Below, one piece after another: positions 11,714 through 52,770 of a stretch of 64,000 nt of DNA. Origin of the DNA: a virus (taxonomy: Duplodnaviria > Caudoviricetes); the IMG/VR virus record IMGVR_UViG_3300037851_000671, positions 32,001 to 96,000 of that record. One strand, 5' to 3'. Positions within the stretch are counted from its first letter, which is position 1; each line of letters opens with the position of its first letter. The translations under genes and the position numbers were made by a program. The notes under the pieces were generated by a model. It was not told where the DNA came from. It saw only the letters and a list, made by a program, of their open reading frames with translations, and made no database searches.

Positions 11714-11759
11714 TTGTTAGCTAGGCATTCTTCAGTATGAATATGACTCTGCATGAACG

Positions 11760-12569
11760 GTGAACCGCATGAAACTACCAATAGAAGCTAGAATTAAATT
11801 GCTTTGCAAGGTTGTGGGAGATTTCTACAAATACGCCCACACCAACGAGCAAATATTGCCGTCTTCTATTACCTATCGTGTAACAGCGCCTGAAGAAAGC
11901 ACTTTGGTAAAACAAGCCGCCAGACAGGCTGCCTTTGAGTCTCTTAAAAATTCCACATCTAGTTCTGTACGCCAGGACAAGATTACCAAGCTGGCGTTTG
12001 ATACGAGAAGAATTGATCAGGAGCATGATCGCAATCCTCGCCACAACCTACAATATTGGCACAGATCAGATCCGTTCATTGATGACGAAGACCAGAAGAA
12101 GCTTGATATCTTTGCTCGTCTTGGAAAAATCCTTGGGCAACTCAAGGATAAACTCGGAACGGACCCGCAGTGGTTTGAAAGCTATGTTCGTCAGCTACAC
12201 GATAACGTCAATAGGATATTGAGGGTCAAGCAGGCTGACATGGATATTTTCAGGCCTCAGTTGGCTTATCTTGAACAGTTGGTTTATGCTAGATATAGAT
12301 TGACTATGGAGAATCTTGAGAAATTCTCGGATGAGCAGTTGACGGAATCAATCCTGGCCAAGGATGAAAACCTAAACGGCAAGTCAAAGTTTCTCACCAC
12401 GGTATCTAAAGATGAAAAACCTGCGGCGCTGATAAAAGACAGCTTGACCAAAACAACTCAAGATTCTATTGTCAATGCAATTTTCGGCGCTCCAAACTTG
12501 AGAAGGGATGGGGAAAGAACAGTGGAGAGGACAATCACAATTAAAATCGTTGACAGTGTTGTAGACTAA
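11760..12569 (+). CDS. Hypothetical alpha-helical protein
   Basis: 269-aa charged helical ORF; ATG at 11769 is an alternative start. Confidence 0.6.
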   Translation: MNRMKLPIEARIKLLCKVVGDFYKYAHTNEQILPSSITYRVTAPEESTLVKQAARQAAFESLKNSTSSSVRQDKITKLAFDTRRIDQEHDRNPRHNLQYWHRSDPFIDDEDQKKLDIFARLGKILGQLKDKLGTDPQWFESYVRQLHDNVNRILRVKQADMDIFRPQLAYLEQLVYARYRLTMENLEKFSDEQLTESILAKDENLNGKSKFLTTVSKDEKPAALIKDSLTKTTQDSIVNAIFGAPNLRRDGERTVERTITIKIVDSVVD

Positions 12570-12580
12570 AAAGGAGCAAG

Positions 12581-13198
12581 ATGCCACCCGTTGGTTTTGA
12601 GACATGGTTTCCGAAGCAATGTCCCACATCATTCGTGGTGAAAAACATCGCTCCAGGGAACAAAAGAGTTCACGTTTTTCACTATCCTATTGCTAACGGG
12701 ATGGAGCGTGATCTCATGGCCATTCCCTACGTTTCTGAGGCTGATATTCGTCATTCTTTGTTAAAGGGTGAGCTGTATACGAAGCTTCTGTGCCGTGATA
12801 TTAGAGTAACAGAAAGCAACATTGACCTTATTCAATTTGATGCGTGTCACAAAAACTTCCTGCAACAGGCCGGTATAACGATTGGCCTTGATTGTGGTGG
12901 TAGCGGATCTAACGTTAGGTATTTGTTCAGGCAGAATGTACCATTAATTGGACCTTTAAATAACGCCAATAGGGTGTTCATGGTGCCTTACCAAGAGAAG
13001 TTTTTGAACAACAATTTTGATGGTAATGATTTTCGTATAATAGTTGAGCATAACGGAAGGAGGTTGATTGAGAACGTTGATTACACTGTTCTTGAGTCTA
13101 CCCCTGGTTCTGGATATGACTTAATACGAATGGATTCTTTTGTACCAAATACAAGAAGTCATTTGATTGCTGACTACGTAATCGAAAACAGCATCTAA
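12581..13198 (+). CDS. Hypothetical virion protein; N-domain paralogous to 27435..27914
   Basis: SD aaggag; VKNIA...VSEADIRHSLLKGELY resembles ITNIS...YTEEQIRASIASGSIF; C-terminal NGRRLIENVDY module common in phage structural proteins. Confidence 0.55.
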   Translation: MPPVGFETWFPKQCPTSFVVKNIAPGNKRVHVFHYPIANGMERDLMAIPYVSEADIRHSLLKGELYTKLLCRDIRVTESNIDLIQFDACHKNFLQQAGITIGLDCGGSGSNVRYLFRQNVPLIGPLNNANRVFMVPYQEKFLNNNFDGNDFRIIVEHNGRRLIENVDYTVLESTPGSGYDLIRMDSFVPNTRSHLIADYVIENSI

Positions 13199-13207
13199 GG
13201 AGACAAT

Positions 13208-14695
13208 ATGGCATCACGTCAAAACGCACTTGATCAAGAACTAGACATTGCTGGTTCACAACTACAATCATCAACAATGGTTTTGGCTGATGAGCCAAAT
13301 CTTTTGGGATCTCCGGTTACTGGACAAACTGGCGCAGCTGGAACAATTACGGCTGCCTCTGGCGGTATCAGTACAATGGATGGTCTTACCGGTATGACCG
13401 CTGATTCTGTTGGCAAATTCCTGACAGTTTCTGGAGCAGCTAATGCAGGAAATAACGGAACGTTTTTGATAGTTGCGTATAACTCTGCAACATCAGTAGA
13501 CATAGCAAACGTTTCTGGTGTATTTCCAGATGCGAATACAGGGGCTTTGGTATGGACTGAACGCAATCCATATTCTTTGCTTGATGACTTGAATTATGAG
13601 CGTACAGACCGCGCTGCTATCAAAGGTGTTGCGTATTCTGCGGCAATTCCTACATACACACGTCCAACCGCTACAGGAACACCAGTACCAGCAAACCTGT
13701 CAAATATAGCTGGTAAAACAACTGATGCTCAGGCCATTGTTGCCAATCGCAAATTTGAAGACCTTACAATTAATCTTGGTGACACTTATATCACACTAAG
13801 TGATACCGGAAACCTGAAACACGCTGATGCAATAGATAGAACAGGCGTACCAATCTGGGACGGTGCTGACGCTGGTAATTGGGAGGCAACATACTGTGAA
13901 ATCGCATCTCAGCAAGAACAGGAGTTGTTGGTTGTTGGAGGTCCATATGACGGATACAGAATCTTTGGACGTTCAAGGGCGGGGGCTTCTACATCTCCAA
14001 ACTCTGTTGAGGTAGAGTTCTTCTGTGTAAGGCGCGGAGATCCTGTCTCTACAGCTGTTGCTTACACATGGGATGGTTACCAGCCAACTTCGGTTGATAT
14101 CTACTACCCATACCGTACACGACTTGACCAGATGTCAGAAACGGCAATGCGCGTTCTTTTGGTCAATGGTTTGGTGAGCGATGCTGTTACAACAGAGCTG
14201 AATAACATCTATTCAACATTGGGCACAAATTCCACATCAACAAGCTTGGCAGGATTGTTGACCAATCTTGGAGCGTATTACCCATTCTATAACCTACCTG
14301 ACGCATCTCCGTCTGTGGTTGAGGCTTTAAACACTTTGAACGAGCAGATTGGAAACCGTGATTACACCGGACCAATACTCACTGACGGATATACCATTAC
14401 ACAGTCTCTGCAGCAACTTGCTAATGCTATTTCTGGAGCAACATCACAGAGGTACATTGAAAGGCTGGCGGCTTCGATTACAGCAAACACTGCACACACC
14501 CTACCAGGTGGTTTGACATATACACCAGATGGAACGAACAATGGTAAAAATATGTGGGTGTTTACGAGAGGTTTGTTGAGAGATCCGGGCCCAGTAAGCA
14601 GTGGAAATGACTACGCTGAAACAAGCTCAACACAGATAACTTTCTATTCCAAGCTTAATGCTGGCGATCACATAAACTACATCGTATACATCTGA
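13208..14695 (+). CDS. Probable structural appendage protein
   Basis: 495 aa, Thr/Gly/Ala-rich, SD aaggag; NNGTFLI module; C-terminal VFTRGLL..GNDYAETSSTQITF module; 3 DGY. Confidence 0.6.
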   Translation: MASRQNALDQELDIAGSQLQSSTMVLADEPNLLGSPVTGQTGAAGTITAASGGISTMDGLTGMTADSVGKFLTVSGAANAGNNGTFLIVAYNSATSVDIANVSGVFPDANTGALVWTERNPYSLLDDLNYERTDRAAIKGVAYSAAIPTYTRPTATGTPVPANLSNIAGKTTDAQAIVANRKFEDLTINLGDTYITLSDTGNLKHADAIDRTGVPIWDGADAGNWEATYCEIASQQEQELLVVGGPYDGYRIFGRSRAGASTSPNSVEVEFFCVRRGDPVSTAVAYTWDGYQPTSVDIYYPYRTRLDQMSETAMRVLLVNGLVSDAVTTELNNIYSTLGTNSTSTSLAGLLTNLGAYYPFYNLPDASPSVVEALNTLNEQIGNRDYTGPILTDGYTITQSLQQLANAISGATSQRYIERLAASITANTAHTLPGGLTYTPDGTNNGKNMWVFTRGLLRDPGPVSSGNDYAETSSTQITFYSKLNAGDHINYIVYI

Positions 14696-14708
14696 TATAT
14701 GATAGGTT

Positions 14709-14918
14709 GTGCAGAAAGTTGATCTAACATTCACAGAAATAGAACATCCAAGTTTCTGGTGCGATTCAGGACACAGACCACCAGAAACTTGGGGTAAAGA
14801 TCAGAAACCCACTCGCTTTTTCCGAGCTTCTGGAAAGGCCGGTGGGGTTTTCTGTGAGTGTTGTATGATTGTTGCTAATTACGTATCTGACAGACAAAGG
14901 AAAGAAAATGGCATATAA
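14709..14918 (+). CDS. Small putative zinc-binding protein
   Basis: WCDSGH...FCECC; GTG start 9 nt after GATATA. Confidence 0.5.
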   Translation: MQKVDLTFTEIEHPSFWCDSGHRPPETWGKDQKPTRFFRASGKAGGVFCECCMIVANYVSDRQRKENGI

Positions 14919-15297
14919 TGAAGACTTGATAAATTTGAAGAAAAGAGTTGCAGATCTTATATCAGAAGGGATAATCAACCCAAACAGCAAAGATATATAT
15001 GAGTCAACTTTGATTCAGGTTATGAATGACGCTGAGAGGAATCGTCAAACATGTATGACGAGTGCTGAGAATTTGAAGCGTCAGGCCGCTATTCTTGAAG
15101 GACAGGCTGGTGGTTTCGCCTCTGTTAGCAGTTTGATTATAGCTGTTCTAAATGGATTCGTAGCCATTGCTGAAAAAAATAAGAACGAACTGCGTGAGCG
15201 CGAAGCTGAGCGTAAAGCCAATGAAGAAGAGGTATCTGCGGCGGTGTTAGAAGAGAAAATTCCTGCGAAAAGGAAGAGCAAGCACACTGAGAAATAA
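14908..15297 (+). CDS. Coiled-coil hypothetical protein
   Basis: ATG 14908 with aaggaaag upstream; helical, E/K-rich. Confidence 0.6.
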   Translation: MAYNEDLINLKKRVADLISEGIINPNSKDIYESTLIQVMNDAERNRQTCMTSAENLKRQAAILEGQAGGFASVSSLIIAVLNGFVAIAEKNKNELREREAERKANEEEVSAAVLEEKIPAKRKSKHTEK

Positions 15298-15300
15298 GAC

Positions 15301-15311
15301 TAAACCAGCAT
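15301..15311 (+). promoter_or_regulatory. Candidate phage promoter class A, TAN-N4-GYAT (one instance)
   Basis: Ends 6-7 nt before SD-less ATGs at 15318, 27929, 33206, 34857, 45374 (and 52771 as CCAT); further copies at 11718, 16442, 23704, 27166, 28252, 29201, 46218, 46267. Confidence 0.6.
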
Positions 15312-15317
15312 TAGAGT

Positions 15318-16433
15318 ATGTCACAGGATAACCTAATCCGAAAAGAAGACATACTCGATTCTGATTTCCACGATGCCTATGAACTTGGTTCTGATGGGTA
15401 TAGTGTCTATTTCTATGCTGCTAATGTAATATCCACAACAGCTATTACAAAAACAGTAGTAGTATCGGGTATCAATCATTCTGTCCGCGATAACAACGTG
15501 CAGGCAGAGGATAGGGTTTACCTTTATGGAACGTCTGGAGCTGATGGGTATTACACCATTGCTTCAATTATCAATGACACTTCTTTTACAGTCGCAGGAG
15601 AGATACCAAACTCATCTGGCGGATACTGTAACTACATCTATAGATCTGGTTCTTTAAATATTGGGTTTGATCCAACCAATACAAATAACATTACGGCCCA
15701 TAACGTTCAAGAAGCTATTGAGCAGTTGGATCAGGTTGTTACAGCAAACCCAACAGGTCTTGATGGATACAAGCATGCTGAGCTTAGACAGCTGATTCAT
15801 CTTGCTGATGGTGTTGGTGGTCCTTTTGAAGGGTTTACTACAGGTGCGTACAGGGAATACACCGGTTCAATGATATTCCCAACAAAGGTAACTTGGTATA
15901 CAAACCCAACTAAAACCAAGAAAATTGTAGAAAAACAGATAACCTACAATTCAAACCTTGCACCTACTCTAATCATTTGGAATGTGTATTTCAATGATGG
16001 TGTAAACGTTGCAGCTACCGCAACTGATACAATCACAAACTCTGGCCCATTTGAGGTATCTAGAGTTCGTACTATTGTTGACTACAGCGTTGCAAGCGGC
16101 GATCTGACATCTGAGACTCACAAGAGTTTGAGACAATTGATACACCTAGCAGAGGGTGTTGGCGGTCCATTTGAGACGTTCCCAAGCGGTGTTTACAGAG
16201 AGCTGAATCCAGTTGGACCATTCCCGACATCTGTCATTTGGTACATAGATTCCAGCAAACTGCAAAAGATTGTTGAAAAAACTGTCGTGTATAATTCCAA
16301 AAGTGTACCAACACAGATTACATGGAAAGTTTACGACACAAATGGCATTACAATTATGGCCACAGCAATTGACACAATAACATACTATCCTGGTACAGTG
16401 TTTGAGATGTCAAGGTCAAGGAACATCCTTTGA
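15318..16433 (+). CDS. Probable structural protein with a tandemly duplicated ~110-aa domain
   Basis: H..LRQLIHLA(D/E)GVGGPFE...KIVEK...A.A.DTIT occurs twice. Confidence 0.65.
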   Translation: MSQDNLIRKEDILDSDFHDAYELGSDGYSVYFYAANVISTTAITKTVVVSGINHSVRDNNVQAEDRVYLYGTSGADGYYTIASIINDTSFTVAGEIPNSSGGYCNYIYRSGSLNIGFDPTNTNNITAHNVQEAIEQLDQVVTANPTGLDGYKHAELRQLIHLADGVGGPFEGFTTGAYREYTGSMIFPTKVTWYTNPTKTKKIVEKQITYNSNLAPTLIIWNVYFNDGVNVAATATDTITNSGPFEVSRVRTIVDYSVASGDLTSETHKSLRQLIHLAEGVGGPFETFPSGVYRELNPVGPFPTSVIWYIDSSKLQKIVEKTVVYNSKSVPTQITWKVYDTNGITIMATAIDTITYYPGTVFEMSRSRNIL

Positions 16434-16476
16434 GCTATGAATAGTAGGGCATACGAATAGCCATTAAAGGAGAAGG

Positions 16477-17541
16477 ATGTCATCAGAATCGCCAGCATCA
16501 ATTTTGTTTTCATCAGATGGATATGAATTAGCAGCGGTTACCGCTACAGCTATCCCTACTGGCACTCGTGGTCTTCTGGCAATGGGTTCTGATGGTACCA
16601 ATGCCAGGTTCATCAACGTTGACAGCTCTGCAAGGGTGATTACGGCCGGTGCTGGTGTTGCTGGTACTCCTGCCGGTGGCGTACTTAGCATTCAGGGTGT
16701 GGCTGGCGGTACGGCAATTCCTGTTTCGGGTAGCATTACAGCAAACAACGCCTCTGTATCTGCGACAGGATCTGCTCCTCCGGCATCTGCTACTTATATT
16801 GGTGGTAGCGTAACAACAGCCGCCCCCACATACACAACCGGACAGATGAATGCGCTTTCTCTGACAACAGCGGGAGCCTTGAGAGTTGATGGCTCTGGAG
16901 CCACTCAGCCAGTATCTGGTAGCGTAACAGTGAGCGGAACAGTTACTGCTAATCAGGGCACAGCCGCTGCAACAGCTAGTGCATGGCCAATAAAACTTAC
17001 TGACGCTACCAACACAGCCTCTTTGCTGAATACCACACCAGCCGGAACAGAATATGGTTTGGTTGTTAGGAATATTCCATCTGGCACACAGACAATATCA
17101 GGAACCGTTACGGCGAACGCTGGAACTGGTAACTTCACAGTTGTCCAAAACACAGCCGCAAACCTGAATGCTGCTGTTGTTGGTACTGGTGTGGCTGGTA
17201 CTCCTGCTGGTGGTGTGCTCACTGTCCAAGGTGCGTCTGGTGCAACCGCCCTTCCTGTTACAAATCAAAAAGCTGCAACATCGTCACTTTCAAACGTGCC
17301 TGGTTCGGCCACTAGCGTGACGTTGTTGGCTGCAAATGCAAATAGGCTTGGCGCTACAATATACAACGATTCAAGTTCTACGCTATATGTAAAATACGGA
17401 ACAACAGCATCAAACTCAAGTTTTACTATTAGACTGCTAGCGCAAGCATATCACGAGGTTGTATTTGATTACATCGGAAGGATTGATGGTATTTGGAATG
17501 CCTCTACTGGAAATGCTAGAATCACAGAACTAACAGCTTAA
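16477..17541 (+). CDS. Fibre-like protein (short paralogue of 17574..20918)
   Basis: Shares N-terminus MS.ESPAS.LF, internal G.GVAGTPAGGVL repeats and C-terminal SATSVTLLA.N.NR..ND domain with the next gene. Confidence 0.65.
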   Translation: MSSESPASILFSSDGYELAAVTATAIPTGTRGLLAMGSDGTNARFINVDSSARVITAGAGVAGTPAGGVLSIQGVAGGTAIPVSGSITANNASVSATGSAPPASATYIGGSVTTAAPTYTTGQMNALSLTTAGALRVDGSGATQPVSGSVTVSGTVTANQGTAAATASAWPIKLTDATNTASLLNTTPAGTEYGLVVRNIPSGTQTISGTVTANAGTGNFTVVQNTAANLNAAVVGTGVAGTPAGGVLTVQGASGATALPVTNQKAATSSLSNVPGSATSVTLLAANANRLGATIYNDSSSTLYVKYGTTASNSSFTIRLLAQAYHEVVFDYIGRIDGIWNASTGNARITELTA

Positions 17542-17573
17542 TTGTGGGTATATTCTAGGGCAAAGGAAATGTA

Positions 17574-20500
17574 ATGAGCGGAGAATCACCAGCATCAACA
17601 CTATTTAATGCAGCTGGAGTAGAGCTTGCAGTAACTACCGGATCATCAATTCCAGTTGGTACACCTGCCTTATTGCTGGCCGGAGAAGATAGCACTGGAA
17701 ATGCTCAGAGACTTACGGTTGATGGTTATGGTAGGCAAATAATCGTAAGCGATCCTGACAGTCCAATATCCATTAGCGGAAGCATTACTGCCACAAATCC
17801 ATCTGTTGGCGTGTTGGGAGGAACTCCACCATTATCGGCCACACAAATTGGTGGACCAAATAATGATGGGGTGTTCAACGTATTGGAGGTTACCAGACAA
17901 GGTCACATGCCGGTTGCTGCACAAGCTTTGAACGGGTATGCCGGAGAGGTTACCCAGTGGCCGGTAGACAATCAGATTAGAAAGTCACTGACGGCCGATG
18001 ACTTTGGTGGATTATACACACGTGGTCAGGTAATGACCGATGAAGGGTCTTTTACTGATGTTTTTTCCACGCTTGAAACGTCGTTGACGGGAACAGTATC
18101 TTTCGAGAACAATTCTGTAAACGTTGTTGGTGTTGGAACCGCATTTTTGTCAGAGATAAACTACTATAGCTTGGTAAAAAAAGCAACTGACGCCGATTCT
18201 CTGCTGGTAGAGGTTGAAGCAGTGTTGAGCGACACTGAGCTTCGGCTGTCTTCGCCATACCAAGGAACCACTGCTTCGGGTGTCAGCGCTGTTGAGACGC
18301 ATTGGTATAAGCAGACTGCGTCCGGCGGTACCATAACGATATCCAGCAATACGTGTGTTCTGACAGTGCTGCAAGACAGCGCACAAGCGGCTGGCATTGA
18401 GACAATCGGTGACTACGTACCATTTCTTGGCACGATACGCGCACAGTTGAGTGCGCGTGCTACCAATCAGACGACTTGGATTGGTTACGCTGATACGTTA
18501 TGGAATGGGGTAACAGGCGCACACGCTTGTTTCTTGTTTGATGGTACGACCAACACAACGGTGAAATGCAGCTCTGGTACTGGTCGCACTACCAATACGT
18601 ACCAGGAAACGACGGTTACGATTCCTGGCGGTTTAAACAGTTCGTCACCTCAAAATTACCGAATCGTGCCTTGGCAAGGCCAGGTCGCGTTTTTCATCAA
18701 CGGCAACCAGGTAGCGGTTCACGACCAGTACGTTATCCCTCCATATGTTGACGTGCGCTTCGGTATTTATACAGTGAACACTAGCACTGCCACAGACCTT
18801 ACGGTTACTCTGTATGGCACGGTTTACGAAAGCATCGACAGGTTTGATGTACGTGTGTATAACACTAACGCAGATCTGCTACAGGCGACGGTTAGTGGTA
18901 AGACGACAACAGGTCTGACAGTCCCTCTTCAGGTGAGTACGGCCGGTATTGCAGTAGTATCAGGCGCTGTAACACTATCTGGTACATCGAATACAGTTCG
19001 TGGCAACGTCACACAATACACAGCTGATGGTACGGCGGCTGTTGCAAACTCGTTGCCGGTAATTGCGCAGATGTTGGCAACCAAAGCCGGCGCTAATACT
19101 CTTGACCGTTTGTGGGCTGGTCCGACGAATGCTGATGGTGAGGCTGTAGAAACAGTCGGTGCGCTTCTTGTGAAGGACAGGTTGTACGGATTCAATGGTA
19201 CAACCTGGGACCGTTTACGCTCTACTACTGCAAACGGTTTGGCTGTTGATGTAAGTCGTGTTCAGGGGACTGTCACTGTTGGCGGTATCAATGCTGCTGG
19301 TGGAGGTATAACTGGAAATCCTTTGCGTATCGGTGGCAGTGATGGTTCAAATACCAGAGATATCCAAACAGACACTGCTGGAAATCTGGAGATAGTGGGT
19401 ACCGGTGTTGCTGGTACTCCCGCTGGCGGAGTGCTCAGTATTCAGGGCGTTGCTGGCGGTACGGCAATCCCTGTAAGTGGCACTGTAACCGCAGCAAATG
19501 CATCTGTTTCAACCACAGGATCAGCTCCTCCAGCATCAGCAACGTATGTTGGTGCAAAAGTAGGTACAACAGAGCCATCATATACAAACGGTAATATGGA
19601 GGCACCATCGCTTACCACAGCTGGGCGTCTTCGTGTTGATTCTCAGTTCCTGAATGTTGTAGACTCTGGAAACTCCACTACAACTCCGCTTGGTGCCAAT
19701 GCTACGTTCACAGGAACTGCGGTAGATCTCCTGGCATATGCCAGTATTACATACTCAGTATTTACAGATCAGGATAGCGCTGCAAATGGCGTTGTATGTC
19801 AGTTCAGTCCTGACAATGTAAACTGGGATGATCGTATAATAAATACCAAAACCGCAGACGGAACTGTCAGCGATTTTTCGGCGCGTTCACATGACCGATA
19901 TTTCCGTATCAAGTACACTAACGGAGCCACACCACAGACCACTTTCAGATTTCAGACGATTCTGAAGCGATACATGCCAGCTGGTGATACTACTGGTGTG
20001 GATCATCCGCCACACTCTGGTGATGATGCTCTTCTGGTAAAAGCCGTAATGTCTGGTAAGTCTACGGTTGGTGGTGTTACGTATGTTGATGTTAAAGTAA
20101 ACCCATCTGGAACAATCCAGATTGGTGGTGGTGATACGCCAGCAGAAGGACATGCAAATCCAACAGACGCACAGCTTTCAACCGCTTTTAATATGGGTTG
20201 GAATGGTTCTACATGGGACCGTATTCAGGCGCATGGCAACGACATAGATAGTGATACCGTTGAGACAACCGGCTCTCTTGCTGTGTGCTCTCACAACATG
20301 ATGTTCAACGGCACTTCTTGGGATCGTATACGTGGAACCATAGCCAATGGGCAGCTCGTTGATGTGTCCAGGGTGCAGGGCAGCGTAGCTGTTACTGGTA
20401 CGTTCTGGCAGGCAACACAACCTGTTTCTGGCACTATAACGGCAGCTCAGGCAACTGCGGCAAATCTTAATGCAACTGTAGTTCAAGGTAATGCAGGAAC

Positions 20501-20918
20501 TGCGGCTCAAGGATGGTTTGCCAAGGTCACAGACGGAACGAATACAGCAGCTGTCAAAGCGGCTTCTACTGCGGCAGTTGCTTCAGATCCTGCTTTGGTA
20601 GTGGCTATATCTCCTAACAACTCACTTACCGTAAAAGAACCAAGACCAAGCTCTGCATCACAAGCAAACGTAGCAATCAGTGCCACAAGCGTAACACTAT
20701 TGGCATCTAATACAAACAGGCTTCGTTACTCTGTTATAAATGACACAAACAAACAAGCATATGTATCTCACAGTGGAGCGGCCAGCACAACAAATTACAA
20801 ATACACATTGCAACCTGGTGAATATTACGAAGATCCGTTTCCTTGTTTTACCGGTGCTGTAACAATAATCTGGTCAGGTTCTGGTACTGGTTCCGCTAGG
20901 GTAACCGAGGAGACATAA
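17574..20918 (+). CDS. Long fibre-like protein
   Basis: 1114 aa, Thr/Gly/Ala/Val-rich; NG.TWDR repeats; lectin-like central domain; modules shared with 16477..17541. Confidence 0.65.
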   Translation: MSGESPASTLFNAAGVELAVTTGSSIPVGTPALLLAGEDSTGNAQRLTVDGYGRQIIVSDPDSPISISGSITATNPSVGVLGGTPPLSATQIGGPNNDGVFNVLEVTRQGHMPVAAQALNGYAGEVTQWPVDNQIRKSLTADDFGGLYTRGQVMTDEGSFTDVFSTLETSLTGTVSFENNSVNVVGVGTAFLSEINYYSLVKKATDADSLLVEVEAVLSDTELRLSSPYQGTTASGVSAVETHWYKQTASGGTITISSNTCVLTVLQDSAQAAGIETIGDYVPFLGTIRAQLSARATNQTTWIGYADTLWNGVTGAHACFLFDGTTNTTVKCSSGTGRTTNTYQETTVTIPGGLNSSSPQNYRIVPWQGQVAFFINGNQVAVHDQYVIPPYVDVRFGIYTVNTSTATDLTVTLYGTVYESIDRFDVRVYNTNADLLQATVSGKTTTGLTVPLQVSTAGIAVVSGAVTLSGTSNTVRGNVTQYTADGTAAVANSLPVIAQMLATKAGANTLDRLWAGPTNADGEAVETVGALLVKDRLYGFNGTTWDRLRSTTANGLAVDVSRVQGTVTVGGINAAGGGITGNPLRIGGSDGSNTRDIQTDTAGNLEIVGTGVAGTPAGGVLSIQGVAGGTAIPVSGTVTAANASVSTTGSAPPASATYVGAKVGTTEPSYTNGNMEAPSLTTAGRLRVDSQFLNVVDSGNSTTTPLGANATFTGTAVDLLAYASITYSVFTDQDSAANGVVCQFSPDNVNWDDRIINTKTADGTVSDFSARSHDRYFRIKYTNGATPQTTFRFQTILKRYMPAGDTTGVDHPPHSGDDALLVKAVMSGKSTVGGVTYVDVKVNPSGTIQIGGGDTPAEGHANPTDAQLSTAFNMGWNGSTWDRIQAHGNDIDSDTVETTGSLAVCSHNMMFNGTSWDRIRGTIANGQLVDVSRVQGSVAVTGTFWQATQPVSGTITAAQATAANLNATVVQGNAGTAAQGWFAKVTDGTNTAAVKAASTAAVASDPALVVAISPNNSLTVKEPRPSSASQANVAISATSVTLLASNTNRLRYSVINDTNKQAYVSHSGAASTTNYKYTLQPGEYYEDPFPCFTGAVTIIWSGSGTGSARVTEET

Positions 20919-23041: not shown

Positions 23042-23054
23042 GGAGATAACAATC

Positions 23055-23684: not shown

Positions 23685-23732
23685 ACTGCACTGTTTTGAT
23701 GAATAACCAGGCATTGCTATGAGAGGTAAAAT

Positions 23733-24050: not shown

Positions 24051-24051
24051 T

Positions 24052-25245: not shown

Positions 25246-25256
25246 TCAGGATAATT

Positions 25257-25430: not shown

Positions 25431-25445
25431 GTTATATCCCTTTAC

Positions 25446-26546: not shown

Positions 26547-26559
26547 TATATCCAAGAGA

Positions 26560-27157: not shown

Positions 27158-27193
27158 TCTTTGCATATCTGCGCATGAAAACAAGAGGAAGAT

Positions 27194-27466: not shown

Positions 27467-27914
27467 GAAAACCGAAGCACAGTTATGGATCACCAACATA
27501 TCTCGTCAAAAAGATATTCAGCTTGGTGATCTTAGGCTGACGGTAAGACGCGGTAAAAGTTACAATCTTCTTGATAAAAAACACTTCCACTACACGGAAG
27601 AGCAAATCAGAGCCAGCATTGCTAGTGGTTCTATTTTCAAGAAAAGAGATGTAATAAGAGTGCGTGAAGTTGCGCCTGTTGTTTACAATATGCGAGTTGA
27701 CATATACAACGGACCAAGAGATGGTATTCGTCCAGTAAGACAGCAACCACCTCCAGAGCACAAGCAATTTGCCGAGCTTGATTTTGATGAGGTATCTGAT
27801 GATAGTCCTCAAGCCCAAGAACAGTATGCAGCAGAAACGGCAGAGCTTGATTTGATGGATAAGATGCCTGCTTTGCCTGTGGATCCAAAGTACCGTAAAA
27901 TGGATAGTGAATAA
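27435..27914 (+). CDS. Hypothetical protein, N-domain paralogous to 12581..13198
   Basis: ITNIS...YNLL...YTEEQIRASIASGSIFKK; acidic C-terminus. Confidence 0.55.
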   Translation: MSQLPTLIPHKKTEAQLWITNISRQKDIQLGDLRLTVRRGKSYNLLDKKHFHYTEEQIRASIASGSIFKKRDVIRVREVAPVVYNMRVDIYNGPRDGIRPVRQQPPPEHKQFAELDFDEVSDDSPQAQEQYAAETAELDLMDKMPALPVDPKYRKMDSE

Positions 27915-27928
27915 CCCAGCATAGGTTC

Positions 27929-28264
27929 ATGGGAGCAGCAACATACATTTTCGCAAATCCAGGTCAAATAGTGCGTCTTATAGAACAGACGCTTGATGGG
28001 TATGGTGACCGCACTGATGGATATGTTCCTGTAGTCCAAAGTGTTGTGTTCCCTGACCTGACAAACGCTGCCGGATACCCTCGTCAGATGAGTCGAATTG
28101 ATGTTGGCTTGTATGCTCATGGAATACAACTTCCAACAGGGGTTGATTCTTTGGGTACATACGTTATCAGCGTCTACTATCAGGAATCCGGCCTATCAAA
28201 ATGGGATGCGTTTGCCATCAATGTTGCAAGGCCATTTGGCAATACGATAGTTACTCCGGCATAA
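27929..28264 (+). CDS. Small Ig-like protein resembling the N-domain of the next gene
   Basis: Beta-strand pattern ...GLY.....LP.G...LGTY vs ...GEYEYDY.VG..PPLGTW in 28281..29177. Confidence 0.45.
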   Translation: MGAATYIFANPGQIVRLIEQTLDGYGDRTDGYVPVVQSVVFPDLTNAAGYPRQMSRIDVGLYAHGIQLPTGVDSLGTYVISVYYQESGLSKWDAFAINVARPFGNTIVTPA

Positions 28265-28280
28265 TTAGGAGGGATGAACA

Positions 28281-29177: not shown

Positions 29178-29242
29178 GCGTTTTTTTTCATCATCCTCGC
29201 TAGGTGCGTATATACATCATCGCATATCGTGGCTTTTTAACA

Positions 29243-30253: not shown

Positions 30254-30261
30254 GTAGAAGC

Positions 30262-30648: not shown

Positions 30649-30649
30649 A

Positions 30650-32656: not shown

Positions 32657-33190
32657 ATGAAAGAGGTACATACCAAAGGTATCCCACATAGAAAGCTTAG
32701 GCCCATCATTCAGGATTTCAAAGACAAAATCCGAAACAATGATGTGGTCAAAGACATGTTCAAAGAGCATGGCGTAAGCATGGATGAACTTGATCTTGTG
32801 CCGATGTGTTTTGCTCATATACCTGTCACGGCTCGTACAGATCATGGCGTCATCTATCTAAACGTTGACATGTTAAAAGATGGAAATATAGAAGACAAGG
32901 ATGACCATTTCATTGTCCATGAGATGACCCATTACCTTCAACAAACAAATGGCACCAAGCCCACGCCAGGGTCAACAGATGATACCTATCTTGATAACCC
33001 TGCCGAACAAGAAAGCTTCCAGAACCAAACCAAGTACATCTCAGAAACAGACGGCCCAGAAGAGGCCAAAGAGTACGTTGATGATTTGTTGGAACACTTC
33101 GAGGTTCCTAAAAAAGACCGCAAGAAAAGAGAGAAACAACTGCTGGATTTGGCTAGATCTGTCGGTGTTGTTATGCAAAGACATGGATAA
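32657..33190 (+). CDS. Zincin-like metallopeptidase domain protein
   Basis: IVHEMTHYLQ (HExxH) with a downstream Glu in NPAEQES. Confidence 0.65.
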   Translation: MKEVHTKGIPHRKLRPIIQDFKDKIRNNDVVKDMFKEHGVSMDELDLVPMCFAHIPVTARTDHGVIYLNVDMLKDGNIEDKDDHFIVHEMTHYLQQTNGTKPTPGSTDDTYLDNPAEQESFQNQTKYISETDGPEEAKEYVDDLLEHFEVPKKDRKKREKQLLDLARSVGVVMQRHG

Positions 33191-33205
33191 TCTTGCATAC
33201 AAACG

Positions 33206-34810: not shown

Positions 34811-34856
34811 TGACACATGTACAGTGTCAAGTATGGTAATAATGATGTATTGCCTT

Positions 34857-44398: not shown

Positions 44399-44403
44399 AT
44401 GCC

Positions 44404-44431
44404 AAAGGCCAGGGATGAAACCCTGGCCTTT
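44404..44431. terminator. Bidirectional terminator between convergent genes
   Basis: Perfect 11-bp inverted repeat aaaggccaggg/ccctggccttt with a 6-nt loop, short A/T tracts on both sides. Confidence 0.8.
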
Positions 44432-44450
44432 TAAATTTGCAATTTGTATT

Positions 44451-45143
44451 TCAAGGAGTGAGGCAACACCAACCGTTAAGTCCGGAAGCAATGGGGGTTT
44501 TTGCACACCTGGTGGCTGTAGAAGGAGGGGCTACACATTTGAAAGCTGCAAAGAAATATGCATAACCACCTTCGCTACAAAATGTTGGAAGATTCGATCC
44601 TGATGACGGTTCACAAGTACAACCGCCAGTACAAGTAGAAGGAACGTTAGCGGTATTTCCTGTATTATTGTTGCCGGCTACACTGCCACTTCCAGTTGTA
44701 TTTCCGGTTCCAGCTGTGTTGCCAGTATTTCCATTCCCAGATCCAGCATTGCCAGATCCAGCATTGCCGGTCCCTCCGCCGCCAGCATTGCCCGACCCTG
44801 TGTTGCCAACATTTCCAGTTCCAGCGTCACCGGATCCGGCCTCACCAGATCCTTTGTTACCGGATCCAGCATCACCAGATCCGTTGTTACCGGATCCTGC
44901 AATTATGGTGGGTTCTCCGGCAATATTGATAGGCATACCGGCAACACCTGGATTTTTACCAGCAATTACGGGTTCCTTGCCAGCGGCGGCGTTGTTTCCA
45001 GCATTTCCGTTTGAGACGTAATTTGCTGTATTGCCTGTATTTGGAGCTCCGGCGGGTTGCTCAACATCTGGCCTGGCCTCGAACCCTGGGCCTGAGCAAG
45101 CAACAGCTGAAAAGCAAAGGGCAGCGAGTATCAGCTTGTTCAT
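44451..45143 (-). CDS. Predicted lipoprotein with Gly/Asn/Ser-rich linker and Cys-rich C-terminal domain
   Basis: MNKLILAALCFSAVA|C (lipobox-like); GSG.AGSG repeats; 7 Cys in the last 60 aa; SD gagga on the minus strand. Confidence 0.75.
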   Translation of the reverse strand: MNKLILAALCFSAVACSGPGFEARPDVEQPAGAPNTGNTANYVSNGNAGNNAAAGKEPVIAGKNPGVAGMPINIAGEPTIIAGSGNNGSGDAGSGNKGSGEAGSGDAGTGNVGNTGSGNAGGGGTGNAGSGNAGSGNGNTGNTAGTGNTTGSGSVAGNNNTGNTANVPSTCTGGCTCEPSSGSNLPTFCSEGGYAYFFAAFKCVAPPSTATRCAKTPIASGLNGWCCLTP

Positions 45144-45184
45144 GTTATTTTCCTCTGGTTTGGTTGCTCAAGCTGTTGATTGCC

Positions 45185-45212
45185 AGTGTAACTCTTCTTG
45201 TTCGGATGTCAA
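45185..45212 (-). promoter_or_regulatory. Sigma70-type promoter for the lipoprotein gene
   Basis: Minus strand TTGACA (45212-45207), 16 nt, TACACT (45190-45185), about 40 nt before the ATG. Confidence 0.7.
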
Positions 45213-45373
45213 CGGGGTCTTTTCGTTTTACCTACACTGGAATAAGATGCTGAATCGCGTCATCTATGTTTGCTTCTGAATCGTTATCGAGAGCAATCAA
45301 GTGCTTAGCTAGCAGATATACACGAAAAGATGCCTGTCAAGGAACGTGGCGGCGAATATTTCCGCATACGACC

Positions 45374-46318: not shown

Positions 46319-48796
46319 ATGGCGGCAAATATAGAAGGAGCTTCTAGAGCAGTACCTGGAACATACACAAGAACCGAAACCCTGCAAAGAGGGGTTAGTG
46401 TTCCTGCTGGTGCCCGTATTGCAATGATCATGGGCGAAGGTTTGACCCAGGAAACGCTGGTCGGATCGGCCAACGGAAATGGCAATGACGGTTTCAATTC
46501 AACCTACACATCAACAACAGGTTCTGATGGACGTCACTTCCTTCTTGGTCGTGGATCCGTAACCGTTGCCCCTGTGATTGAAAACAGGTCTCGTCTTTTC
46601 AAGAATGGAGTTGAGTTATCCGTTCTTGAGGGTGTAATAGATAACGCTGCGTTTGACAGTAGGTTTGATGCCAAGCTGGATCCGCTTACCGGACAGATTG
46701 TTCTTCAAGCTGCCAGACTTGTCGATCAGGGTGGAAGTCTATACAAGGCCTCTCTATCCAACGTAGGAACAGGAACCATCCAGAACCTTCAGCTTGTTGA
46801 TGTCAATGCGCCGCCAGAGACTTGGACCATCAGATGCTCAAGTGTTCGTAGAGATGGGTATGGAAACCCAATAGATGGTTATGCTAAATTCATTGCTCGT
46901 GGTTCTGTCAGCGGTTTGATTCTTGATGGTTATGGAAACCAGATTACATGGCAGTCAAACGGCACGGTAGTCTCTAACGGAATTCTCAGCTTCTCTATCG
47001 TAGAGGGTTTGATCAAGTTCCAAGAGGGAGATTCGTTTACGCTGGCCACAACAGCTGGAGCGTTGGTAGCTGGAGACTCTTTGAGTGCCAGGTACATCCC
47101 AGAGATATACCTAGAAGACCCAGAGTTTTTCACTGACTTGAATCAGTTGGTAGCCAAGCATGGTCAGCCAAGCACCACAGACGGAAGGCTGTCTTTGGGA
47201 GCGCAGTTGGCATTTGCTAACGGAACGCCAGGAGTATTTACACTACAGACAAAGCCATCATTGCCACGTAGAATTTCGTATTCTCTGGTAACTTCGGCTT
47301 CTGGTCTGACAAGCATTGACGACCTTACATTCGAGCTTCCGCTGAATGTGGTACCAGACGCTGACAGTAATATCAACTTCTTTGTAACGAACCCAATATC
47401 CAAGGCTGAGACACAGGTCATACCAAACAAGGTATCATTCTTCGACCCAACAATCACAGCCAACCCAGCATCGTTTGTGTACGGAGCATATAGCTGGTCA
47501 TACACGGTCATTCTTGATGACTCGGTACCAAAGCAGGGAATAGATGGTGTTTTGACTGTCACCGGCCCAACAACGGCTACATTGTCCAGTTTGACGGTGG
47601 CGTTTGACTCAAGCGATGTTTCTGTAACAAGAACGGTCAAGATCTATGACTCTCTGAATGGAAATGACGGAACGTATGCGATAGCCAGCGTAAGTGGTGG
47701 AGTGATGACGCTCTACAGTGGAACAGGATTTGGAACAAACGAAACAGGAGTTAGATTCGATGTTTTGGATTCCTCGGCACAGAGCTCAAAAATCTTGTTT
47801 ACACAGGATCTGGCACTGGCACTAGGCTCAGCTCTTAGGGCAACTGTAGTGGATGTCAAAGACGCACCGTTCTTTGATGCTGGATGGTTGGATGCATTTG
47901 CAGCGGCCGAGAAGGTCACTGTACAGATGATTGTACCACTTCCTGCACAAACAATCTCTGCAATCTTCCAGAACGGCAAGGTACACGTAGAGAAGATGAG
48001 TGATATCAGGAACAAGAATGAAAGAGTTCTTTTGATAGGAGCCATCAACGGTTTGACACCAGAAAACATCACTGGACAGAAGCCAGCAGCTGTTGAGGAC
48101 ATTGGTATCCTTGAGGGTATCCAGGGAGACAGCGTATCTGAGATTCTGGCCGGAAACACCGAAGATCTAGCTAACTACTCTATCTTTGATAACTACGGTG
48201 ACAGCTACCGCGTATTCTACTTCTACCCTGACCAGATTGTTGTTCAGATTGGAGCTGACAACGTTATAGTTGATGGTTTCTTCATGGCGGCAGCAGCGGC
48301 TGGATACTTCTCCGGCAACTCCTCTATCAACGAGCCATTGACCAACAAGAGGCTGTCAGGATTCTCTATTCTGCGTAACCGTTTGTACTCACCAATCGTA
48401 CAAGAGAACATTGTAAATAGCGGCGCAACCCTACTGGTACCAGTTGCCGGTGGTGGTCGCGTAATCTGGGGTAAGACAACCACGATAAGCCTGGCTGCGG
48501 AAGAGCAGGAGATGAGCATCATCTTCATTCGTGACTCTATTGCCAGCTCTATGCGTAGGGCGTTCCTGCCATACATTGGTCGCCCAGAGAGCCCAACATT
48601 CCAAACATCTCTATATGCAGTAGCCCAAGGGTTGATGCAGAGCTTCATTGAGCAGAGACTGATCACAGCCTACGCAGGTTTGACAGTGAAGCGTGATGAT
48701 GTTGAGCCAAGACAGTGGAATATAACGGTTGCAGTACAGCCTACATATCCTGTCAACTGGATTTACATCAAGATTAATGTTGGAAGGCTGGATTAA
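46319..48796 (+). CDS. Contractile tail sheath protein
   Basis: N-terminal PGTYTRTE; C-terminal FFMAAAAAG...EPLTNK...E.S..FIRD...NITVAVQPTYPVNWIYIKINV. Confidence 0.9.
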   Translation: MAANIEGASRAVPGTYTRTETLQRGVSVPAGARIAMIMGEGLTQETLVGSANGNGNDGFNSTYTSTTGSDGRHFLLGRGSVTVAPVIENRSRLFKNGVELSVLEGVIDNAAFDSRFDAKLDPLTGQIVLQAARLVDQGGSLYKASLSNVGTGTIQNLQLVDVNAPPETWTIRCSSVRRDGYGNPIDGYAKFIARGSVSGLILDGYGNQITWQSNGTVVSNGILSFSIVEGLIKFQEGDSFTLATTAGALVAGDSLSARYIPEIYLEDPEFFTDLNQLVAKHGQPSTTDGRLSLGAQLAFANGTPGVFTLQTKPSLPRRISYSLVTSASGLTSIDDLTFELPLNVVPDADSNINFFVTNPISKAETQVIPNKVSFFDPTITANPASFVYGAYSWSYTVILDDSVPKQGIDGVLTVTGPTTATLSSLTVAFDSSDVSVTRTVKIYDSLNGNDGTYAIASVSGGVMTLYSGTGFGTNETGVRFDVLDSSAQSSKILFTQDLALALGSALRATVVDVKDAPFFDAGWLDAFAAAEKVTVQMIVPLPAQTISAIFQNGKVHVEKMSDIRNKNERVLLIGAINGLTPENITGQKPAAVEDIGILEGIQGDSVSEILAGNTEDLANYSIFDNYGDSYRVFYFYPDQIVVQIGADNVIVDGFFMAAAAAGYFSGNSSINEPLTNKRLSGFSILRNRLYSPIVQENIVNSGATLLVPVAGGGRVIWGKTTTISLAAEEQEMSIIFIRDSIASSMRRAFLPYIGRPESPTFQTSLYAVAQGLMQSFIEQRLITAYAGLTVKRDDVEPRQWNITVAVQPTYPVNWIYIKINVGRLD

Positions 48797-48826
48797 TTTC
48801 AACTTCGATGAACTAAAAGGTGAACA

Positions 48827-49489: not shown

Positions 49490-49502
49490 TATATGACAGT
49501 GT

Positions 49503-50237: not shown

Positions 50238-50565
50238 GCATCAGTTCCTATTCTTTCTTGTAGAGCTGTTTAGAAAGCCTCCTGACGATCCTTTTTATGA
50301 GCATATTAACCCATATTTGAAGATATGGTTGTATGAGTGCTGGATACACAAACAGGAAGTTGAAATAAAGCGAATGAGAGATCACGCTTTGTTCATAGGC
50401 TCATTCTCTAACCCAGAGGCTGCTAACAAATACTACAAACTTGAAAATCCGGACTTCAAATCAACAGACGAAGAAGAAACGGCCAAGATGGTTCGCAAGC
50501 AGATTTTGGAAGAGGAGAAGCAAAAATCCGGCAAGGGAAGAAAACGTCGCAAACTTGTTAGGTGA
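50221..50565 (+). CDS. Second tail chaperone ORF (gpT-like), possibly reached by +1 frameshift
   Basis: Overlaps the previous stop in the +1 frame; GTG without nearby SD; basic C-terminus; directly before the tape measure gene. Confidence 0.6.
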   Translation: MARLPEHQFLFFLVELFRKPPDDPFYEHINPYLKIWLYECWIHKQEVEIKRMRDHALFIGSFSNPEAANKYYKLENPDFKSTDEEETAKMVRKQILEEEKQKSGKGRKRRKLVR

Positions 50566-50570
50566 TTAGA

Positions 50571-52748
50571 ATGGCTGAAATATTTACCACAGAACAGATT
50601 CAGGCTTTTGCAGATAAAGCTGGTGCTGCAAAAGATTCGGTTATGGCGTGGTGGAATAGTCTTACCGGTATTCAAAAATCACTTGTAACAACAGCCACCA
50701 TAACGGAGCAGTTTAAAGGTAAAATACAAGACCTTGACAAGATAGTAAAAGAGACGCTAACATCTTCTGATGCTCTTTCTGGTGCGATGAAACGATTGCA
50801 AGAGAATGTTGGTTTCTCCTCTGAGAAATTTGAACAATTCGCGCAGAGCATAGAAAGGGCGGCTGGGAAAGCTACAAATTTCCAGATTCAAACAATGATG
50901 CTTATGGAGCCGATGCTTGGTGTTCTTCCAAAAATACCAACAGCATTTGGTAACATGGGAGATGCTGGGGATATAGCCGGAACCAAAATTGCCAATAGTT
51001 TTTCTATAGCTATTCCCTATCTTGAAAAACTGGGTTCTTTTGGGGCAGCTGGCGCAGCAATGTTCAAAGAATATACCGCTGGCGCAGATAGAGCCAATGG
51101 TCTTGAAAGAAGCATAGTTAGCCTTGTTTCAAGTGCCGGAGGCTTGAATTCTATGCTTGTTGAAAACGGACAATTAACAGGTGAGGTTCTTGACAGAAGA
51201 TATGCAACCTTTACCAGAAGGATGCATGAGATTGGAGATGCTACTGGGCACACAATAAGTGAAACCATGAATTTCGCTCAGGCTCTTGGTGCGATTCCAG
51301 AAGCTCTTAACCAGCCAATTAAATTATTGGATGGTGTTCGTGGTTCGTTATCATCTATGAGTCAGCTTGAAGCAAGTCTAACACTTGCCTCTTCATATGG
51401 ATTGAAGCACGGAGATGTTGTTGCCAGATTGACAGAGCTGTATCAGCGTTTTGGCACTCGTGGTACTGAGGCGTTTGAGTCTGTCAATGGAATATACAAA
51501 GCGGCTCAAGACCTGAACATGCCATTGAGCAACGTAACTAAAATTGTCACTGATTCTGCTAATCATTTCAAGCTTCTTGGTGATAATACACAAGCCGCAA
51601 CCAATGTTCTAAGGGCATTTGGATCTGCACTGAAGGACAGTAACCTTGGACCGGAAGGTGTAGAAAGAATTGTTGCATCAATGTCGGTAGGCGTTTCAAA
51701 AATGAGCGAGAGCCAGCAGGCTTTTGTATCTGCGTCTACTGGCGGGCCTGGCGGATTGGCTGGCGCATACCAAATCGAAAACGCCATTCAAGAAGGCAAA
51801 ATGGATGAGGTTCTTGGCCGAACAATGGAGGCCATGAAACGCGAGTTCGGCGGTCCAATACTTACTTTGAAAGATGCCGCTTCTGATCCTTCCAAATCAG
51901 GAGAGTTCTATAAGCAGGTACAATACCTTACTAAAGTAACTGGCATTGCAAGTGATAAACATGAGGCATATCGTATCTTGGAAGGAATGCAGAAAGGCGC
52001 TTTGGATGAAACTCAGATCGGAAGAAGGGCAAAGGGACCTGAGTTAAAGCAAGCACTGGAAAGGGGACATTTCCTACAAGAGCGCGGAAACACAGAACTA
52101 ACCAGGATTTACAATAGGATTAGTGAATACAACATAATTCAAGCGGCTGTTGAGCGTGGGGCCATATCAAAAATCATTGGTGCCGAGGGTTTTACAGGTC
52201 TTGGAGAAAGCATGAGAACAGCCGGTGGTAGGGCTGGTGCTGGCGGCGCTCTTGGACAATCATATGATGAAAATGGGAATGTATTGAGTACCACAAGGAT
52301 GGCAAGGGAAAGTTTTCAAGGCGCTGTCCAAGCTCCGCTTGATGTTGTACACAAAATAGCGCCAATGCTTGCTCCGTTAGTAGGAAGTTTAAAAGACCAC
52401 ACACAAGCATTTCTTACCGGAGGAAAGATTAAACAAACAACTAGGACAGCTGGTTTCATAAGCACAAGACCAACAAAAGCAGAGGGTCACAAATGGGGGC
52501 AGCCTGGTTTTGGAGTATCGCCGGCCGCAAGAGGAATGCCATCTTTTCCAGGTCCTAATGCTGCCGGCGCCCAAGGCTTTACCATCAATCAAGGCAAACC
52601 ATTTGCGCTTGAACCGGTCAAAGGAACTATTGATGTTCATATCAAATTCTCCGATATAAAAGATGGGTTGTCTGATCTTGTTAAAAAAGAACTCAAGATT
52701 CAAGGCAGAGAAAACCAGTTCGGTAGAAACGCTGGTGTTAAGCCATGA
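50571..52748 (+). CDS. Tape measure protein
   Basis: About 725 aa, Ala/Gly-rich helical; canonical position after the chaperones. Confidence 0.75.
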   Translation: MAEIFTTEQIQAFADKAGAAKDSVMAWWNSLTGIQKSLVTTATITEQFKGKIQDLDKIVKETLTSSDALSGAMKRLQENVGFSSEKFEQFAQSIERAAGKATNFQIQTMMLMEPMLGVLPKIPTAFGNMGDAGDIAGTKIANSFSIAIPYLEKLGSFGAAGAAMFKEYTAGADRANGLERSIVSLVSSAGGLNSMLVENGQLTGEVLDRRYATFTRRMHEIGDATGHTISETMNFAQALGAIPEALNQPIKLLDGVRGSLSSMSQLEASLTLASSYGLKHGDVVARLTELYQRFGTRGTEAFESVNGIYKAAQDLNMPLSNVTKIVTDSANHFKLLGDNTQAATNVLRAFGSALKDSNLGPEGVERIVASMSVGVSKMSESQQAFVSASTGGPGGLAGAYQIENAIQEGKMDEVLGRTMEAMKREFGGPILTLKDAASDPSKSGEFYKQVQYLTKVTGIASDKHEAYRILEGMQKGALDETQIGRRAKGPELKQALERGHFLQERGNTELTRIYNRISEYNIIQAAVERGAISKIIGAEGFTGLGESMRTAGGRAGAGGALGQSYDENGNVLSTTRMARESFQGAVQAPLDVVHKIAPMLAPLVGSLKDHTQAFLTGGKIKQTTRTAGFISTRPTKAEGHKWGQPGFGVSPAARGMPSFPGPNAAGAQGFTINQGKPFALEPVKGTIDVHIKFSDIKDGLSDLVKKELKIQGRENQFGRNAGVKP

Positions 52749-52770
52749 GGCATAATCAGCCATATTTGGT

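Follow-up and report, generated by a model that had tools for sequence, protein, structure and literature searches.

TA-N5-GCAT, a probable phage-specific promoter core without a -35 box, precedes mainly late genes in a large myovirus without close cultured relatives

The 64,000-nucleotide (nt) window analyzed here comprises bases 32001-96000 of a 218,772-bp IMG/VR viral contig (G000), and an element that recurs in it, which is referred to as class A and has the core TA-N5-GCAT, is probably a phage-specific promoter core lacking a -35 box, at which the host RNA polymerase would be directed by a non-housekeeping specificity factor, most likely the sigma factor conserved in this phage clade. In the proposed mechanism, the host polymerase together with this factor would initiate about 7 nt after the final T of the motif, and if +1 is the A of the ATG in those genes whose start codon lies 6 nt after the motif, GCAT would occupy positions -10 to -7 and TA positions -17/-16. 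The mRNA of such a gene would begin at the A of its ATG and would be leaderless, and a start codon 13-40 nt away would give a short leader containing a Shine-Dalgarno (SD) sequence. A promoter with its start 6-7 nt downstream had been proposed in a first-pass annotation of this DNA for the looser form TA-N5-GYAT, and it is the best-supported reading of the spacing, the position, the SD split, and the orthologs, the start itself being predicted from sequence. We favor it because the spacing between TA and GCAT is exact, the motif is orientation specific, and 6 nt is a hard lower bound on its distance from the start codon, and because the SD sequences split with that distance, the motif is kept at orthologs, and it is present in divergent intergenic regions. 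Coordinates of sites are those of the window unless marked otherwise.

The occurrence of the motif in G000 is beyond chance, being specific in spacing, in orientation, and in position. The loose pattern TA-N5-GYAT shows a mild excess, with 227 copies on both strands compared with 187 +/- 12 in shuffled sequences, and its two forms behave differently: 24 of the 107 genome-wide copies of TA-N5-GCAT are noncoding, versus 5.6% expected (P = 5e-9), whereas only 6 of the 120 copies of TA-N5-GTAT are noncoding, so that there is no genome-wide enrichment of the latter. GTAT was therefore rejected as a full member and is retained only as a minor variant at 6-7 nt from the start codon, which narrows the GYAT consensus of the first-pass annotation to GCAT and leaves the copies at 29201 and 34840 weak. 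When TA-Nk-GCAT was scanned in G000 for k = 0-12, co-oriented and at most 60 nt upstream of starts, 16 copies were found at k = 5 and 1-7 at every other k, and the antisense count at k = 5 was 4 (P = 2e-6). The same scan of the relative G001 gave 10 copies at N5 versus 1-7 elsewhere, and a set of 80 mixed IMG/VR related loci, gathered with a head-region protein, gave 39 copies at N5 versus 2-24 at other spacings. In the 45 nt preceding each start, an unbiased k-mer count found GCATA 25 times compared with 7.7 expected, ranking it just below SD words and the ATATA words of the other promoter-like class described below. The fuller consensus is a-a-TA-W-n-n-n-K-GCAT-W, whose additions to the core are a-a on the 5' side of TA, W and K as the first and last bases of the N5 spacer, and W following the final T, and many class A sites open with TAAT or TATT.

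The distance to the start codon was examined in a four-genome pool, which consisted of G000 and three relatives taken whole, G001 (181 kb, 37% G+C), G002 (435 kb, 48% G+C, complete), and G004 (252 kb, 41% G+C). In 10 genes of the pool the distance from the end of the motif to the ATG is exactly 6 nt, in three it is 7 nt, and in one it is 8 nt, and no motif ends 0-5 nt before an ATG; the mean at other distances is 0.63 (P = 1.5e-9 for the 6-nt peak). The enrichment upstream of starts is consequently position specific, rather than equal at random offsets. Five copies are still found at 6 nt when the discovery genome is excluded (P = 8e-5), and no 6-nt peak is seen in 77 other phage loci used as a negative control. 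At this position in the pool the TA or the final AT is almost never changed, and the G and C each tolerate substitution, variants at these two bases being over-represented: ACAT is present in four copies at 6 nt (background mean 0.66), CCAT in three copies at 6 nt and one at 7 nt (0.26), TCAT in three copies at 6 nt (0.53), GAAT in four copies at 6 nt (0.62), and GTAT in three copies at 6 nt and three at 7 nt (0.77). An SD sequence is absent from all 14 sites located no more than 8 nt from the start and present at 20 of the 26 located 13-40 nt away (Fisher P = 3e-6), compared with 43% of all genes, and the split between leaderless and leadered behavior that had been described from a handful of sites is thereby confirmed. 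The start codons concerned are backed by orthologs, whose alignments begin within a few residues of them. A caveat raised at the outset, that the TAA of the motif may simply be the stop codon of the upstream gene, does hold for the sites at 27912 and 33188; across the pool, TA is such a stop codon in 4 of the 14 close sites and not in the other 10, and the caveat therefore cannot account for the pattern. The arrangement of these genes, with no SD sequence and an element fixed 6-7 nt from supported start codons, is the one predicted for leaderless genes, and many virion genes of the clade are probably translated from leaderless mRNAs.

The putative promoter is kept at orthologous genes while its N5 and its flanks diverge. 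Ahead of the 266-amino acid (aa) gene at ATG 11769, for example, the motif is found in all four genomes with differing N5 and distance, as TAGCTAGGCAT in G000 (11718..11728, + strand, 40 nt before the ATG), as TATTACTGCAT in G001 (33 nt), as TAATCTTGCAT in G002 (18 nt), and as TAAGTAGGCAT in G004 (31 nt). In G001 and G004 the upstream neighbor of this gene is divergent, and the motif is held within the gap of 92-95 nt; since the neighbor is on the opposite strand, a promoter must lie in that gap, and inspection of these two gaps found no other promoter candidate for that direction. In G002 the motif is located in a divergent intergenic region of 348 nt, which likewise needs a promoter. The ortholog of the gene at 15318 is preceded in L003 by TAAGTCGGCAT, 6 nt before a GTG start, and in G001 by TAATTTGGCAT, whose distance from the start is 5 nt if this is a TTG and 8 nt if it is an ATG. 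For the gene at 16477, TAATTCAGCAT is found in front of the G004 ortholog, between a terminator-like hairpin, which it directly follows, and an SD sequence, and in L003 the similarly placed string reads TA-N5-ACAT, 27 nt from the ATG. The gene at 52771, which has only a CCAT variant in G000, is preceded in G002 by the canonical TAATTTGGCAT 6 nt before the ATG. Finally, the G001 and G004 orthologs of the neck gene at 33206 display TAGAAT at exactly -12 to -7 before an SD-less ATG, and since this hexamer is in leaderless register, the host system can evidently use leaderless starts from a canonical -10 hexamer. The same gene has class A or an SD sequence instead in G000 and G002, an instance of promoter turnover at one gene.

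Class A precedes mainly late genes, which are those for packaging, head, neck, tail, and lysis, and the bias is not absolute. Of the 16 motif genes in G000, 13 are located in the packaging and virion block at 0-116 kb, which contains 81 of the 229 genes overall (P = 2e-4), and all 11 motif genes of the relatives that have a G000 ortholog map to the late block (P = 0.006). The motif genes include those for the intein-bearing terminase large subunit and the sheath, and a VanY/M15 peptidase encoded on the other arm is also among them. The intein of the terminase large subunit (contig 4876-7833, outside the window) contains a LAGLIDADG domain.

Class A is not a canonical sigma-70 (housekeeping) promoter, in agreement with what the first-pass annotation had claimed. 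TTGACA-like -35 boxes are no commoner near class A than at random, no conserved column is visible among 50 class A sites from -45 to -3 relative to the TA, so that the pairing typical of extracytoplasmic function sigma promoters, an AAC-type -35 box 16-17 nt upstream of a short CGT-type -10 box, is not seen either, and position -11 is G or T in 35 of the 50 sites, with no conserved A. Canonical sigma-70-like sites are themselves not enriched in window 11000-30999, where 43 were counted compared with 40 +/- 6 expected. Other known promoter types were considered and rejected. A sigma-54 promoter (GG-N10-GC) was rejected by inspection, there being no conserved GG and the sole TGG site being 2 nt short in spacing; a SigF/SigG-type -35 role for GCAT was rejected because the ATG is 6-24 nt downstream and leaves no room for a -10 box; and CAT-N3 was rejected as a -10 hexamer because the start would fall inside the coding sequence of the 6-nt genes.

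The window also contains a second, commoner promoter-like class, class B (G[AT]TATA), whose register is unlike that of class A. In the four genomes, 56 genes have a class B element 8-10 nt ahead of an SD-less ATG, several of the copies directly follow terminators or tRNA genes, and the class is without a -35 box and without bias to the late module. Like class A, it does not match TTGACA/TATAAT. Examples in the window are GATATA at 4171, 26545, 30247, 49488, and 53812, and GTTATA at 25431. The distinction between the two classes drawn in the first pass thus stands in both register and gene content, and the possibility that they are temporal classes is only half supported, class A being late-biased and class B showing no bias.

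One sigma-70-family protein was found in G000, a protein of 218 aa with regions 2 and 4, encoded at contig 139513-140169 (outside the window), which matches TIGR02937 with 66.8 bits compared with a cut-off of 42.9. Its orthologs in G001-G004 are ~40% identical to it, and it is without paralogs. Pfam models for the beta and beta' subunits of RNA polymerase had no match in five records, two of which are complete, although very divergent phiKZ-type RNA polymerases could escape the models used; Pfam models for T7-like RNA polymerase likewise had no match, but the control genomes gave none either and this result is uninformative. With no RNA polymerase match and one sigma, the clade therefore appears to use the host core enzyme together with its own sigma. 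The second specificity factor that had been proposed to accompany class A is thus plausible, and the clade sigma is the most likely candidate for its reader, although nothing ties this sigma to class A rather than to class B. Because class A is late-biased and class B is ubiquitous, the two classes suggest a cascade in which class B would be read by the host enzyme, the phage sigma would be made, and class A would then be read by it. More tentatively, and with somewhat less than even confidence, we propose that the sigma might read TA-N5-GCAT without a -35 element by recognizing TA(W) at -17/-16 as duplex and GCAT at -10 to -7 in melted form. No class A copy is present within 90 nt upstream of the sigma gene in the four genomes. 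About 27 nt ahead of their ATG, the sigma genes of G001 (63457-64086) and G004 (242076-242705) (L096, L099) share a conserved element, caataatt[ag]agtata[tc]c, which resembles class B and not class A.

A number of observations weigh against a promoter read by the clade sigma, and the alternatives are best considered along with them. The N5 peak is weak in G002 and G004, with 9 copies each versus up to 8-10 at other spacings. The core is short, and about 85 of its 107 copies in G000 are intragenic background, so that extra context must add specificity. Purines make up 58% at the predicted start of the leadered sites and are not clearly enriched, and none of the sequencing runs listed for window 14001-24000 is RNA, the sole run with the stretch being DNA and probably from the source sample. 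Other points concern the identity of the reader, and they leave room for the possibility, which we consider unlikely but not negligible, that class A is a promoter whose reader is a host alternative sigma, or else the primary sigma of the host, which a phage co-factor would redirect as MotA/AsiA does in T4; class B or another set would then be left to the phage sigma. Class B also needs a reader, and with two non-canonical classes and a single phage sigma, that sigma could belong to class B; although it includes a sigma4 domain, no -35 element can be seen in class A; and three of the four 6-nt sites in G002 lie outside the structural module. On the other hand, the motif is clade specific, as indicated by the control loci that lack the 6-nt peak, all four genomes contain it along with the conserved sigma, and the restriction of the late bias to class A fits a cascade from host to phage sigma.

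A fixed 6-nt distance would also be produced if the motif acted in the RNA, as an endoribonuclease site with a cut about 6 nt downstream that trims polycistronic late transcripts into mRNAs with a short leader or none, and the motif is indeed strand specific and located in the intergenic gaps, often of only 14-20 nt, within long operons of co-directional genes. We regard such processing as improbable, since the motif is also present between divergently oriented genes, where a same-strand transcript from upstream is not expected and nothing else resembling a promoter can be seen, since one copy in G004 follows a terminator-like hairpin, and since neither structure nor an extended RNA consensus surrounds the motif. 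Much less probable still is that it is a translational signal or operator, bound at the start codon by the ribosome or by a phage RNA-binding regulator; the fixed distance to the ATG in 13 SD-less genes could be read in this way, but most copies are 13-60 nt from the start with an ordinary SD sequence in between, and the same ortholog has the motif at 18-40 nt across genomes, whereas an operator would hold its register with the ATG. That AT-rich intergenic DNA, combined with the TAA/TAG stops of upstream genes, generates the pattern by chance is hardly credible. The core has only six fixed bases, some close sites do share their TA with a stop codon, and the GTAT copies lack genome-wide enrichment, but the enrichment of the core is limited to the N5 spacing and the sense orientation, the 6-nt peak recurs in independent genomes, the motif is conserved at orthologous genes, and the spacing, orientation, distance, and other-phage-loci controls all fail to reproduce the signal. 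A phage-specific promoter core accordingly remains our preferred interpretation of the individual sites, all of which are on the + strand.

At the upstream end of this series, the copy at 11718 had been listed, along with one at 29201, as lacking a clear SD sequence, and for 11718 this was upheld, ATG 11769 being SD-less and the motif being TA-N5-GCAT. An 8-codon mini-open reading frame (ORF), ATGAATATGACTCTGCATGAACGGTGA, is located at 11737-11763, beginning 8 nt after the 11718 motif and stopping 5 nt before ATG 11769, and it may be a near-leaderless upstream ORF coupled to the main gene. A further copy, TAGTTGAGCAT, is found at 13041-13070 inside the gene 12581-13198 and is directly followed by a strong SD-like AAGGAGG; no + strand ORF of at least 20 aa begins there, and the copy may be an internal promoter for 13208 or may be due to chance. 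The site TAAACCAGCAT at 15301..15311 ends 6 nt before ATG 15318, the start of a 371-aa head-region gene without an SD sequence that is predicted to be leaderless, and TAGTAGGGCAT at 16442..16452 is 24 nt before ATG 16477 and is followed by AAGGAG. Relatives of the 354-aa product of the latter gene (16477-17541) number more than 900, are 250-600 aa long, and have a middle part that is variable and rich in repeats; the conserved C-terminal domain of this product occurs also on many small phage contigs. It is distinct from the Phage_capsid_4 protein, which is encoded about 7 kb upstream in relatives.

Further downstream, TAACCAGGCAT at 23704..23714 is 18 nt before ATG 23733, and TATCTGCGCAT at 27166..27176 is 17 nt before ATG 27194, each with an SD sequence after it; a second copy upstream of ATG 27194, TAGATTGGCAT, is at 27123. 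The site TAACCCAGCAT at 27912..27922, whose TAA is the stop codon of the upstream gene, ends 6 nt before ATG 27929, which lacks an SD sequence and is fixed by ortholog alignment from residue 8-11. Lying inside the end of the gene upstream, TACTCCGGCAT at 28252..28262 is 18 nt before ATG 28281 and is followed by TAGGAGGG. The second copy reported to lack a clear SD, at 29201..29211, is a GTAT variant and a doubtful member, situated between a terminator-like hairpin and a C39-peptidase-like gene that begins at ATG 29243. In the neck region, TAATCTTGCAT at 33188..33198, in which TAA is again the upstream stop, ends 7 nt before ATG 33206 of the 534-aa neck gene, which has no SD sequence. A GTAT variant that is likewise a doubtful member is found at 34840..34850, 6 nt before ATG 34857, and the start of this gene is ambiguous, with further in-frame ATGs at 34833-34845. 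The gene (34857-35711) encodes a free-standing LAGLIDADG homing endonuclease (helix-turn-helix plus LAGLIDADG_3) and lies between the neck gene and the 1023-aa fibre gene.

In the tail region, TATTTCCGCAT at 45357..45367 ends 6 nt before ATG 45374, the SD-less start of a 279-aa protein and the first + strand gene after a 975-nt stretch (44399-45373) without a + strand gene. That stretch holds only a - strand ORF, 44451-45143, of 230 aa and with no Pfam hit. The longest ORF for this protein begins at 45266, yet the orthologs have 269-275 aa and are aligned from residue 51-54, which supports a start at 45374, and the motif points to it as well. The identities of the neck and tail terminator proteins (33206 and 45374) are those of the first-pass map. 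The tail sheath gene at ATG 46319, which has an SD sequence, is preceded by two class A copies, TAACCAAGCAT at 46218 and TAATTGAGCAT at 46257; the string at 46267, TAACACCAAGCAT, was rejected as class A because its N7 spacing is off-pattern. Finally, the CCAT variant TAATCAGCCAT at 52753..52763 ends 7 nt before ATG 52771 of a 343-aa protein, without an SD sequence. Thus, of the starts that had been placed 6 nt after the motif, those at 15318, 27929, and 45374 stand and 34857 is weak; of the two placed at 7 nt, 33206 stands and 52771 is a variant backed by the canonical copy of its G002 ortholog; and the claim that an SD sequence follows the more distant copies is borne out at 16442, 23704, 27166, and 28252, the off-pattern string at 46267 giving way to the proper copies at 46218 and 46257.

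The phage is an uncultured freshwater myovirus, with its sheath gene at 46319-48796, and is without a close cultured relative: megablast of 20 kb against cultured phages gave no match, and few of the window's proteins were matched in PHROGs. The G+C content of the G000 contig is 43%, CheckV estimates it to be 51% complete, and its genes are on the + strand from 0 to 156 kb and mostly on the - strand from 156 to 218 kb. Related contigs of 434,688 and 480,838 bp are rated complete, so that the window's contig represents only part of a phage genome in the 430-480 kb class. G001, G002, and G004 share 72-80 reciprocal best hits with G000, at ~35-55% identity in the pairs examined, and the closest relative is L003, in which the protein neighboring the 15318 ortholog is 70% identical. 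A host search via a class-V aminotransferase found no close bacterial relative. Alignment of the sigma against the genome collection gave a sole match, of 39% identity, to L142 (CAZGHY010000001.1, a 145-kb contig), which sits in a metagenome-assembled genome labelled uncultured Gammaproteobacteria and is probably a binned phage contig, and as a hint of the host this match is too weak to be relied on.

Nearly all huge phages lack a cultured representative. With a conserved, position-calibrated promoter code, sequence alone would suffice to annotate their true start codons and late transcription units, as in the correction of the start at 45374, and the sigma and promoter can be tested as a pair in vitro without the host. 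Of added interest are the coexistence of two leaderless classes in a phage of this size class and a pairing of one sigma with one motif that is testable. If the clade sigma does read TA-N5-GCAT, this would be a new sigma specificity and could provide an orthogonal expression part, and class A and class B together would represent a two-tier, largely leaderless programme in 430-480-kb phages that relies on the host core RNA polymerase only.

A literature search found no description of the TA-N5-GCAT motif or of promoters of this clade. The nearest comparators are promoters of other phages and of bacterial leaderless genes. The middle and late promoters of phiEco32, with the consensus TAATGTATA, are read by the phage's own two-domain sigma, gp36 (PMC4331800, PMC12276001); -14A, -13A, and -12T are read as duplex, and -11G is the first single-stranded base (PMC12276001), and gp36 also makes essential -35 contacts (PMC12276001). 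Class A looks like a stretched version of this layout, in that a small phage sigma with sigma2-like and sigma4-like domains would act on the host core RNA polymerase, one element dominates near -10, and a duplex part, often TAAT or TATT in class A, would lie just upstream of the melted part. It differs in that the TA and GCAT of class A are split by five free bases and span approximately -17 to -7, in that no counterpart of the gp36 -35 contacts is visible, and in that leaderless placement is not a described feature of phiEco32.

Promoters without a -35 element that are read by phage sigmas are well known from T4, SPO1, and phiEco32. In the late promoters of T4, TATAAATA at approximately -10 is recognized by gp55, acting together with gp33 and the gp45 clamp; gp55 is limited to a sigma2-like part, and T4 late mRNAs have leaders with SD sequences. 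Class A is similar in its -10-only form, in its location before structural genes of a large myovirus, and in the presumed use of the host core with a phage specificity subunit, but it has another sequence, and the sigma here has both domains. In the leaderless promoters of Actinomycetota and Deinococcus, a TANNNT hexamer ends approximately 6-7 nt before the start codon. These promoters share with class A the fixed distance from element to start and the absence of an SD sequence, the final T of class A being at -7, and the G001 and G004 orthologs of the gene at 33206 carry such a hexamer, as described above. Class A differs in having no A at -11, conserved G and C at -10 and -9, and TA at -17/-16, and in being phage specific rather than housekeeping. 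Class A is most likely a familiar phage strategy, a phage-specific promoter whose mRNAs have a very short leader or none, in a new sequence.

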